Assembly (NCBI GenBank): GCA_951406725.2
Contig: OX597815.1
Location: 89,156,001 to 89,220,000, forward strand
Direction: 5' to 3'
DNA length: 64,000 nucleotides
Source: Octopus vulgaris
Lineage: Eukaryota
Position numbers and translations under genes: made by a program
The notes under the pieces: model-generated
Seen by the model: the letters and a program-made list of their open reading frames with translations, nothing else
Database searches by the model: none
What the model was told of the DNA's origin: nothing
Shown: piece by piece, positions 25,041 to 31,383 of the stretch
Layout: every line of letters starts with the position of its first letter
How positions within the stretch are numbered: the first letter of the stretch is position 1

Positions 25041-25345
25041 AACCTCTGCCCTAGCGAAAGCGGAGGTATTTTCAATCGTGTTTGTTTATTTGTTTGTCTT
25101 TGGACAAGATATTCGGATGAATTCGGATGAAATTTTCAGGGATGTTTGGCCTCATAACTAGCACGAACTGATTAGATTTTGGGATCGATCCGGTATCAGG
25201 AAAGGATTTTGAATTATTTTCCCTTTTTCTTACTTAATATTTAAGAGCGGTCAGGGTCATTTTTAGTATTCTTGCTTGTGAGAGTAGTCGAGTGTATTTT
25301 AGATATTCTCATTTTAAAAATCATCTCCGCCTAATCGTTGAAAGA
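25041..25345 (+). mobile_element. Non-autonomous Helentron/DINE-1-like (HINE-type) element, 5' part
   Basis: Terminal stem-loop acctctgc...gcggaggt, then a (gttt)n microsatellite and gattagattttgggatcgatccgg core; homologous to minus-strand 30377-30539 and 31193-31383. Family assignment rests on architecture only. Confidence 0.6.
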
Positions 25346-26100
25346 ACGTCGGCGTTGTCGTTAATGCTTTGTTGAGTTGGTAACTTGTAGGGGTGTGTGC
25401 TCTTTGTTTTTGATTTTACTGCTGTTTCTTAAATTGTTGGATTGTTGTTGCCATTTAAAAATTTTCTTCCCCATTTATAGGTGAGGTGGTGAATAGTGTG
25501 GAGTGCACCAGTGCAGGCGGGTAGTTGTGCCGCGCTGACTGGGTGGAGCTGGTAAGCAGAGGGACTGCAAGTTGCACAGTTTGGATTGCAGGAGAGAAGC
25601 TTTAAAGGGTTCAGCGATTTATTGGGAGGGGAGGGAGGTGGCCTGAAGTTGACGCCCCCGAGCGGGGTGGCAGGTGGAACAGAGAAGGTAGCAGTTGTGG
25701 ACAGAGCATTGGAGATTGCATCGAGAAGGGTGGAAGTGGCAGCTGATGAAGGCGGTCGAGGGGGGCCTCAGAGAGGTTATGAACGTAGCGACGTTCTGCA
25801 CCGGAGGAGGGAAGTGCGGCACAGTGGAGGTGCGCTTCGTGAGTGAGAAGAAAGCGAGGAATTGCTCCACTGTGCCTTTGAGATCAGCAGAGTGGGCGCT
25901 GCTACCGACTTACTGTGGCAAACGTGCGGCCAGAGTAAGAATAGGTAGAGTTTCCCCAGAAATTGATGAGACGTGGCATCCAAAAGGAAAAACATAAGAA
26001 CAATAGGGCAATACCCAAATAGTGTAGAGATAGAGAAGAGAATTGCTATGATGAAGAACCTTATCAGAGTGAAATTAGCGGCCAAAGAGTGTTTCTTGCA
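25346..26100 (+). mobile_element. Gag/ORF1-like retroelement copy 1 (decayed, internally deleted)
   Basis: GKCGTVEVRFVSEKKAR...LRSAEWALLPTYCGKRAARVRIGRVSPEIDETW is homologous to copies 2 and 3; same 5' junction acgtcggcgttgtcgtta. Confidence 0.8.
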
Positions 26101-26469
26101 TTTTAGGAGTGTGAGAATGTGTTTATGTTCGTATGACTGTCTGTATGTGAGTGTTTGAGAGAGTGGGGGCTCTAAAGGTTCTTTCCATTATTTTTCTTGT
26201 TGCTGTTGGTGATGATGTATATACTGGAGTTGATGATGTTGTTGTCTCAGCCGCTTTTGTTGTTCTCGTATCCGGCGATCTTATTAGTTATGCAACCACT
26301 GTTGTACTTGTTGGTGTTGCTGCCATAGCTCTAGGTGACGGCAAATTTGCTGTTCCACCTCTCTTTCTCTCTCTCTCTCTCTCTCTCTATCTCTGTCTCT
26401 GTCTTTCTCTCTGTTGTTGAAACTAACGCTACAAGAGCGGAATTTTGCCTTTATTGTTGCTCTTCTTTA

Positions 26470-27565
26470 AGACGCGATGTTGCAGTGATTCAGTATGGAG
26501 TAGGAATTCTGAAACAGAGGATGAGTTAAAGGAGTTGGACAGGAAAACAAGAAAGCTTCTAAACATTCATGGAGACCAACGTCCACATGGAGACATCGAT
26601 CGTTTATACATAAAGGGAGCATATATTAGTAGGATTCCGATAGGTATGGGAGAATGTGTGCATGTTAAACACAGGAATTTGCTGCGATATCTAAACCAAA
26701 GTAAGGAGACCTTACTAGTAAGAGAAGAGGGCATATTGAAAGCGGAAGAAAAGGAGAAAACAAAAGGAGTACAAAATGTACATGAAGAAGCACTACTCAG
26801 AAGGGTTTACACATGTTTTTTTTTATGTGGACAACTCAGAAATTGCTGGAGAACATAGGTAGGGGTGGTTAAAGAAAGAAACACTTAAAAATGATACTGA
26901 GAGAACTTTACTTACAGCACAAGGGCAAGCGTTTGTCACAAATGGTCAGAAATGAGCAAATGACTATGTTGTGCCGAATATGCAATAAGTTTGATTGAAA
27001 CCATTACCCATATTGTAAATGAACATCTTAAACTTACCCGAAACCATTACAGATTGTGGTGACATAAGAAGATAGCAACATTTTTACTTTGGAACCTGAG
27101 TGAAAAGTGGAAATTAGAAAAAGTGAGACATGGTAAGGCCACAAGCTACAATGAGTGAATGTCGGATTTCTTAACTCAAACAGGCCAACTGCTTGAGCAC
27201 AAGAGACAGAACTTAGTGCTGGCTGATAAAATAGATAACACGTGCTCCGTAATTGATGGTGCATGCCCGTTTGATGCACGTATAGTTAAGAAGGGAGACG
27301 AAAAAGTAGAAATCAGCAGTCCTCTTAAATACGAAATGGCGAAGATAGTGCCGAGTATTGTCGAGGTCGTAGGGGCAGTATCAAAAGATATCAACAGGAC
27401 CATAAAGAAAATGGATATAGAGTGCTCAGTAGAACTGTTACAAAATAGTTAGGTCCTTGGCACAGCAAAAATTATCAGGTAAGTCCTAGATAGTTGAAGA
27501 GAAACAGGGTAAGGTCGCCACTCATGTAAGATTGCTGGAGTTCCAAGAAAACCTGAGTTAAGAGA
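26470..27565 (+). mobile_element. Dong/R4-clade non-LTR retrotransposon, 3' relic with restriction-like endonuclease
   Basis: ELKELDRKTRKLLNIHG..P..DIDRLY, WLKKETLK..TE, a decayed CCHC region, then KRQNLVLADK...IDGACPFD...EKVE..LKYE; followed directly by (TAA)n. Confidence 0.8.
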
Positions 27566-27576
27566 ATAAATAAATA

Positions 27577-27654
<78 letters not shown>

Positions 27655-27655
27655 T
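27566..27655. repeat. (TAA)n tract at the 3' end of the Dong-like element
   Basis: Seen directly. Confidence 0.95.
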
Positions 27656-30376: not shown

Positions 30377-30539
30377 TCTCAACGATTAGCTGGATATGAT
30401 TTTTAAAATGAGAATATCTGAAATAAATTCGACTGATCTCACAAACGAGAATACTAAAAATGAACATGACCGCTCTCGAAAATTAAGTAAACAAAGAAAC
30501 CGAAAAAATAACCGAGAATCCTTGTCCGGTACAAGATCG
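30377..30539 (-). mobile_element. HINE-like element segment directly upstream of copy 3
   Basis: Reverse complement aligns with 25185-25345 (ttctcattttaaaaatcat...ctaatcgttga). Confidence 0.75.
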
Positions 30540-30544
30540 TCCCA

Positions 30545-30850
30545 ATGGTAGTCATGGAATGTGAAGGTAGGTGTGCGGACCGTGTTTGTAATGCTGTGTG
30601 AGTGTCGTCTGCAGAGGGAACAGGGTCAGTTTTCTCTATGAATCCCTTTTTTTAGTCTATCGACTGATATAGTGTTTTTACGACCATTGAGATCTGCAGT
30701 GAAAAATGTATCCGTGCGTGAAAGAAAATGGAAATGACCTGCATACGGTACTGTTAACGGAGGCTTAACAACATCATTGCGCACTAAAACGTGTGTCCAA
30801 GAGGTAAAGTTTCCTTCAAGGCAGAACAAGAAATGTAATTGCCAAGTGGG
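30545..30850 (-). mobile_element. Ty3/gypsy integrase C-terminal (GPY/F region) fragment
   Basis: THVLVRNDVVKPPLTVPYAGHFHFLSRTDTFFTADLNGRKNTISVDRLK resembles the gypsy pattern THVFVR.D.V..PL..PY.GP..V..R..K.F....NG....VS.DRLK. Confidence 0.75.
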
Positions 30851-31192
30851 TAAAAGGTTTTAAACAGTAGGATATATCTAAAATTGGTAAAATTAAAAAT
30901 TGTCGAGGATGAAGTATATTTATTATTCTTACTGAATATGTTAGTGTTATTTAATCTCTGAACGGTTTTGCTGCCATTTAGTTATGCAGCTTGATTTCTT
31001 TATCCATCAATTTCTATTAAGATACGAGTAGAGACGCGAGTAAAATTAATAATAGAGAAACGAAAAGAAAACTTTGGAAACAGCAACGCCGCCATAATTT
31101 ACGTGGAAACATGAGCGTGCTTTCAAGGGAGATAATCAGAGAAGATCAACGTAAAATCTTAATACTTCCATTAAAGTAAAGTAAACACAACA

Positions 31193-31376
31193 AATAATCC
31201 AGAATCCTTGCCCGAAACCGGATCGATCTCAAAATCTAATCAGTTCGTACCAGTCACGAGGCCATACAACACTGAAAAGTTCATCCGCATCCATCCAGTG
31301 TTTCTTGAGATATGTTGTCTACGGACAAACAAACAAACATAGCTGAAAACAATACCTCCATCTTGGTTAAGGCTAA

Positions 31377-31383
<7 letters not shown>
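31193..31383 (-). mobile_element. HINE-like element, 5' part
   Basis: Reverse complement tattaccttagcc...ggaggtattgttttc...gtttgtttgtttgtcc...gaactgattagattttgagatcgatccgg aligns with 25041-25220. Confidence 0.7.

Follow-up and report, generated by a model that had tools for sequence, protein, structure and literature searches.

A stretch of 64,000 nucleotides from the Octopus vulgaris genome (assembly GCA_951406725.2, contig OX597815.1, positions 89,156,001 to 89,220,000, forward strand; here called the window, with position 1 as its first letter) contains three copies of a retroelement with only a first open reading frame (ORF1), nested in HINE-type DNA transposons. The family to which these copies belong occupies one fixed site of its host, is flanked by a 15-bp duplication of that site, lacks ORF2, has inserted independently in different host copies and forms ordered arrays of unlike subfamilies. 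Target-primed reverse transcription is the likely mode of insertion, with endonuclease and reverse transcriptase (RT) supplied by an autonomous Tx1-type partner.

The target site in the HINE-type host

The original prediction, made from the letters of the window, held that all three copies start at a shared motif. The junctions lie at the predicted places, but the motif itself belongs to the host: it is a 15-bp stretch of the HINE-type transposon, and each element begins directly after it. Empty hosts have a single motif, immediately ahead of the 3' subterminal repeat (2,155 matches with at most one mismatch, a lower bound for empty HINE copies; none for the reversed control). Behind the last unit of an array a second motif copy is found, after which the HINE 3' end resumes, and the clearest array (L032; L-numbers denote fetched loci) reads host, unit, motif, unit, motif, unit, motif, host end. 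Since the motif is single in empty hosts and duplicated around inserts, it represents a target-site duplication, as had been proposed, with a length of 15 bp or of 14 bp if the shared first A is assigned to the tail. The exact 5' junction pattern occurs nine times in 2.8 Gb, compared to no occurrence of the reversed control.

A set of loci chosen blind to their flanks was obtained by a search with copy 3, in which 40 of 478 candidates were scored, resulting in 39 other loci. A junction at the HINE site was present in 21 of these, 11 had junctions at other fixed sites and seven were uninformative; unrelated flanks are thus not the rule, and the proposed site-specific retroelement in a HINE-like host is supported. 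Among the 34 3' ends recorded in this set, 21 carried a HINE-type tail, 10 another tail and three no tail, and the duplication followed the tail in 19/21 of the HINE-type but in 0/10 of the other-type cases. By automatic classification, 80 loci yielded a total of 94 3' junctions, and 48 5' junctions were recognized, with at least one junction in 90 loci and both in 37, but most of these loci were chosen by junction patterns, so the totals are selected on the motif and do not represent a rate. The HINE site also holds 5'-truncated copies with the fixed 3' end and without terminal repeats (L060, L111, L120, L134 and others); some of the short copies there may be later deletions. Hence, independent copies of a multicopy target are occupied at the same position, by which a sequence-specific non-LTR (non-long-terminal-repeat) retroelement is recognized.

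The host shows subterminal inverted repeats, a 5' inverted repeat, a 3' stem-loop and a microsatellite, and is surrounded by T-rich flanks (flanks alone compared). It thereby resembles the DINE-1/HINE group of non-autonomous Helentrons, as far as its structural marks are given in the consulted part of Thomas et al. 2014 (PMC4067079). From this structure we infer that the host moved by a rolling-circle mechanism.

The features of the region are as follows.

25040..25342, + strand: 5' part of a HINE-type (Helentron-like, non-autonomous) transposon, short form; it matches empty copies and its 5' inverted repeat folds as a hairpin
25343..25357, + strand: 15-bp target stretch, 5' copy for copy 1, with two element-type C variants
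25358..26090, + strand: copy 1, 5' untranslated region and ORF1 start, S2-like, 3' end lost (by alignment to full-length copies)
27660..28687, - strand: copy 2 (subfamily S2), 5' half; the 3' half is lost at an (AAT)n run
28688..28702, - strand: 15-bp target stretch separating the tail of copy 3 from the head of copy 2
28703..30362, - strand: copy 3 (subfamily S1), full length, 1,660 bp, ORF1 only; 3' junction without poly(A)
29283..30014, - strand: broken ORF1 of copy 3, a 243-codon open stretch with a decayed CCHC knuckle
29674..29782, + strand: inversion of about 110 bp, private to copy 3 (inverted relative to the other copies covering the region)
30363..30377, - strand: 15-bp target stretch, 5' copy for copy 3, with two element-type C variants
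30378..31383, - strand: 5' part of a HINE-type transposon, long (about 1 kb) form

As predicted, copies 1 and 3 adjoin the same HINE position in opposite orientations, copy 1 (+) next to the short and copy 3 (-) next to the long HINE 5' part, and copy 2 (-) directly follows the tail of copy 3. The motif stands on both sides only of copy 3 (30377-30363 and 28702-28688), the sole full-length copy in the window; alignment to full-length copies places an internal deletion of about 600 bp near 25965 in copy 1. The HINE 3' end is present for neither of the two hosts in the window region, and the 5' hairpin of the long HINE copy is decayed. Over their longest shared stretches the three copies are 69-72% identical, which agrees with the original view that they are diverged and therefore no recent inverted duplication. 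The open ORF1 stretch of copy 3 has no Pfam match itself, nor has any other open reading frame of the window, but relatives of copy 3 with longer frames match zf-CCHC.

Two broken 3' fragments of another non-LTR element lie nearby (26400-27575 and 31480-31850, both +); they are 71% alike, both end in (AAT)n, and the first of them sits in the interval bounded by the truncated ends of copy 1 and copy 2. By their look, these fragments may be of the Dong/R4 type of microsatellite-targeting long interspersed nuclear elements (LINEs). A comparison of the RT-like fragment 26427-26855 with the protein atlas gave nothing above 0.84. Elsewhere in the window, 49038-49404 forms an imperfect palindrome of about 370 bp (85% self-complementary). 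In other loci, the HINE host is entered at a second position, about 16 bases downstream of the main one, by a further ORF1-only lineage whose insertion duplicates part of the 3' subterminal repeat (second-site lineage; L101, L104, L105, L127, L132, L133, L137, e.g. 7540-9380, and L143). A single-exon frame for a rhodopsin-family G-protein-coupled receptor (Pfam 7tm_1) is found at L055:6765-8000 (+), less than 4 kb from a filled HINE.

Ordered arrays and element-borne bases at the 5' junction

Neighbours within an array belong to different subfamilies and follow one consistent order, with no conflict in 15 arrays; S1 is always first (7 arrays) and lineage B always last (4 arrays). Such a conflict-free order was obtained in 1,372 of 100,000 within-array shuffles (p ~0.014; short members were labelled by head or tail, and L124, L134, L138 and second-site members were left out). 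Of the 18 pairs compared, 12 had the less diverged member on the 5' side (sign test p 0.24, Wilcoxon p 0.043). Order and divergence together therefore give moderate support to the view that new copies probably enter the host-proximal site. The head-to-tail units with a single motif between them could also be produced by local duplication or unequal crossing-over of one insertion. However, neighbours are only about 70% alike, each is closer to copies on other chromosomes, they group by subfamily and not by locus, and L124 is the only one among the arrays examined with two units of one lineage, which makes this origin extremely improbable.

The alternative named in the original prediction is a composite, in which a HINE would have been filled once and then amplified as a unit by rolling-circle transposition. 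Filled HINEs keep both termini and hence could move, the S1 5' junction shares variants, and long HINE forms look common among S1 hosts, which is an impression. Within 150 bases upstream of the junction, the variants strongly shared by S1 hosts are limited to two positions, the 8th and the 5th base from the duplication end (9 and 10 of 12 S1 hosts versus 4 and 8 of 66 others), with one further S1 variant at -32 in 3/12 copies. The strongly shared variants are thus confined to the last 8 bases of the duplication, and nothing comparable is found further upstream. Moreover, S1 hosts are no closer among themselves (0.174) than to empty copies (0.166; five truncated rows dropped), and S1 is carried by both short and long host forms. 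No fewer than nine closely related subfamilies use the site, as do the two distant lineages B and C, in varied combinations and in short as well as long hosts, and truncated copies have duplications of their own. We regard the composite as largely refuted and give it very little credence.

What the shared variants point to is a contribution of the element itself, which goes beyond the original prediction. Both C variants occur together in 9/12 S1 5' copies of the motif and in 3/9 S2-type 5' copies, but in 0/89 3' or inner copies, and the exact C-variant string has one genome-wide occurrence, at an S1 5' junction. Since a staggered cut leaves both copies identical, part of the 5' copy of the duplication is written by the element. 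CpG decay was rejected as the origin of the C variants, because, among the first 100 exact empty sites, T occupies both places in 95 and C occupies both in none. In L031, 34 bases of host-like sequence that include the variants stand between an ordinary duplication and the element head. These patterns suggest that the element RNA starts in host sequence, and they agree with the leader model for R2, in which the RNA carries upstream target sequence that pairs with the target, hands on junction variants and at times shows up as a tandem duplication (Eickbush et al. 2013; the part of PMC3774820 consulted). According to the same source, R2 shares with the octopus family its uniform 5' junctions and the propagation of variants with the element, as well as occasional tandem duplications of upstream target, of 13-28 bases in R2 and 34 in L031. 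However, R2 is autonomous, has a restriction-like endonuclease and is cut by a ribozyme from a ribosomal RNA co-transcript, whereas the octopus family is known from genomic sequence alone.

Retargeted bodies, autonomous relatives and the proposed source of the enzymes

Inserts with both ends defined (n = 52) measure 314-4,822 bp with a median of 1,757 bp, and none of them contains ORF2 in cis. Full-length ORF2 queries likewise gave no ORF2 in cis in the fetched loci, with the exception of L106:3900-7520 and L157:981-3780, in which half of an ORF1-only element is joined to part of an autonomous one. Both were rejected as partners: ORF2 remnants adjoin passenger halves, the other end lies elsewhere in a different target, and there is no matching duplication. 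Deletion or template switch could produce such joints, and we read the two loci as deletion chimeras. Copies with long open frames match Pfam zf-CCHC, and the nearest clusters of the protein atlas are CCHC and RNA-binding (ZCCHC3-like) proteins (0.90-0.92), to be taken as a lead only. Five relatives of ORF1 with 50-71% identity occur in Octopus bimaculoides. More distant ORF1-only lineages (L148, L149, L150, L161 and L166) have open frames of 440-455 codons, form tandem arrays at other fixed targets and may be the youngest members. The near-identical triplicated loci L036-L038 (C9) and L203-L205 (C7) are segmental duplications, not independent insertions.

Near-identical bodies with other ends were found at other targets, which is the second point not contained in the original prediction. 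The elements of L035, L036, L041, L043 and L051 nest inside S1 and have duplications of their own. Their bodies mostly score 0.81-0.89 per aligned segment against S1, compared to 0.84-0.90 of S1 against S1, but their first 60 bases cannot be aligned, and the last 70 drop to 0.76-0.79 in three of four scorable copies. The two retargeted sites that were checked both belong to multicopy repeats, of which empty copies carry the site once with continuous flanks; one of these repeats occurs in same-direction pairs 4.3-6.3 kb apart, as LTRs do, and by eye both sites lie shortly after a TATA-like box. The same body with swapped ends at other fixed sites implies that the target travels with the ends and not with ORF1. 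In the 3' flanks of L152 and L159, two ORF1-only copies share a target beside a motif that recalls a hammerhead core. The hammerhead resemblance of this target found no support, since Rfam returned no match; on five off-HINE loci it gave below-threshold microsatellite matches only.

Autonomous relatives exist in the same genome, i.e. intact APE+RT elements (APE, apurinic/apyrimidinic-type endonuclease) with a CCHC ORF1 and an ORF2 comprising APE, RT and zinc domains according to Pfam. Of the 150 ORF2 matches listed, 20 were fetched and 16 checked for duplications; most of the checked elements have duplications of 13-24 bp and family-specific targets. One family lies at a single SINE (short interspersed element) position in 4/4 cases, and five members of another share one 3' flank. 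The passenger ORF1 is homologous to the ORF1 of these elements (24-46% identity), and the best named match of one native ORF2 is the 'Transposon TX1 uncharacterized 149 kDa protein' (31%, E 2.4e-90), which is a likeness by name. Membership of the passenger family in Tx1 is likely. Autonomous families with different targets differ more in the endonuclease than in the RT (90% vs 98%; 87% vs 95%). As further observations on these elements, L176-L179 (2938-6340 plus 3' flank) represent a young autonomous APE+RT family at one position of the most common SINE, whose own tail resembles the tail of that family, and this family also stacks in itself. Intact autonomous elements form head-to-tail arrays with a 5.3-kb period (C27:31865028-31876299 and C30:10432851-10449389; L180, L181, L190, L192). 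At L181:6560-6600 the tail end of an autonomous element and the first 8 target bases resemble the HINE junction (7/8 bases), which makes L181 a weak lead to a partner.

The likely course of insertion can be proposed in four steps. The 3' tail would recruit the ORF2 protein of the partner, whose endonuclease would nick just before the 15-bp stretch. The RNA would begin about 10-35 bases upstream, in host sequence, so that the new DNA would pair with the target and be able to overwrite the 5' copy of the duplication. New copies would enter the HINE-proximal site, where the upstream host sequence is retained, and thereby shift older ones downstream; applied to the window, this would mean that copy 3 was inserted in front of copy 2. 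Finally, by exchange of head and tail, one and the same ORF1 body would come to use a different partner and a different site. Such a partner switch via the tail is the conventional reading of the retargeted copies, and an endonuclease that diverges faster than the RT fits to it.

Several findings weigh against this course. An autonomous APE+RT partner at the HINE site, which the original prediction had led us to look for, was not found among the 94 junctions, with the reservation that a bias to known tails affected two of the three junction searches; the search covered three junction patterns (58, 43 and 16 matches) and 20 of the 150 listed matches each for ORF1 and ORF2. The resemblance of passenger tails to those of autonomous families was judged by eye only, and similar tails occur with at least three different off-HINE targets, which a rule of one tail for one partner does not explain. 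Every copy is old, differing by about 10% from its nearest relatives. Support for the direction of stacking is weak, as the trend is mostly due to lineage B and shared SINE insertions disturb some of the distances. In the ORF1 tree (148 rows, each with at least 130 aligned residues, after removal of five near-duplicate or four repeated loci), none of 25 ORF2-linked rows falls within a clade of 110 rows (support 0.91) that holds lineages A and B and the second-site lineage. From this topology the ORF1-only state looks old; lineage C groups on the autonomous side, and the ORF1-only state probably arose more than once.

These points leave some room for another mechanism, in which the target is set largely by target-derived ends of the RNA (5' leader and 3' read-through) that pair with the nicked DNA, while the borrowed endonuclease is only loosely specific and each lineage inherits the site where its parent copy sat. 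It would account for the same body with different ends at different fixed targets, for the element-borne bases in the 5' duplication and the leader in L031, and for the failure to find an autonomous copy at the HINE site. It would also fit to 3' junctions that lack poly(A) despite an A-rich signal about 10 bases before them (by eye). L181 and L185 have endonucleases that are 99% identical and yet unlike flanks, although this contrast comes from one copy each. Moreover, pairing with the target raises the accuracy of RT initiation in SART1, and the same is cited for R1Bm (PMC7265360, in the part consulted). Nevertheless, endonuclease divergence tracks the target differences among autonomous families, the 5'-truncated copies named above are leaderless and still at the site, and in R2 and SART1 pairing improves precision while the endonuclease picks the site. 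We therefore regard RNA pairing as an unlikely main determinant. The broader idea that an enzyme-less lineage inherits and switches its target through pairing of host read-through leader and trailer, steering a borrowed Tx1-type ORF2 with unchanged endonuclease, appears equally doubtful.

Relation to known systems and meaning

Among known systems, the closest counterparts are SINEU-3 and Tx1-Mar in Mariner-N4_AMi of crocodilians, where Tx1-dependent elements stack at a fixed site (Kojima 2015, PMC4494074; this and the other papers of this section in the parts consulted). SINEU-3 is also a non-autonomous retroelement at a fixed site in a non-autonomous DNA transposon, its tandem copies also sandwich one duplication (16 bp), and hitchhiking was likewise excluded with truncated copies. 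However, it is a non-coding SINE derived from small nuclear RNA, its host is a Mariner, and its autonomous partners share the target, whereas in the octopus the passenger encodes ORF1, it sits in a host of rolling-circle type, and the search for a partner at this site gave none. The Xenopus element Tx1L in Tx1D, cited in PMC4494074, is a further case of APE-type sequence-specific insertion into a DNA transposon, but there the retroelement is autonomous, and a non-autonomous piggyBac family serves as host. The retention of ORF1 after loss of ORF2, together with long-lived subfamilies, is shared with the ORF1-only LINEs HAL1, HeT-A and Ag-Sponge, which are derived from L1, Jockey and CR1, respectively (PMC5786205, PMC5753468); for these, the same sources describe neither a sequence-specific site inside a transposon nor retargeting by exchange of ends. 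In this sense the octopus family seems to work like SINEU-3 in Mariner-N4 and to be built like HAL1.

Tx1 elements targeting DNA transposons and ORF1-only LINEs are thus each known, but their combination, an ORF1-only site-specific element in a Helentron-type host, was not found in the literature searched; Repbase reports or the library and supplements of PMC13282606 may already list the families. The latter paper annotates repeats of O. vulgaris, listing L1-Tx1 and Helitron families, and its main text, as far as consulted, mentions no nesting, targets or ORF1. The ordered arrays provide a relative clock for the subfamilies, and they indicate that host and passenger are probably not kept apart in automated octopus repeat libraries. 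More generally, the family represents a natural experiment on the target choice of an APE-type retrotransposon, in which a passenger without endonuclease has subfamilies of the same body that hold different exact targets, varying together with the ends. Young, intact autonomous relatives with known targets are present in the same genome, which makes swaps of tails and leaders testable in trans, and the answer is relevant to tools for site-specific gene insertion.

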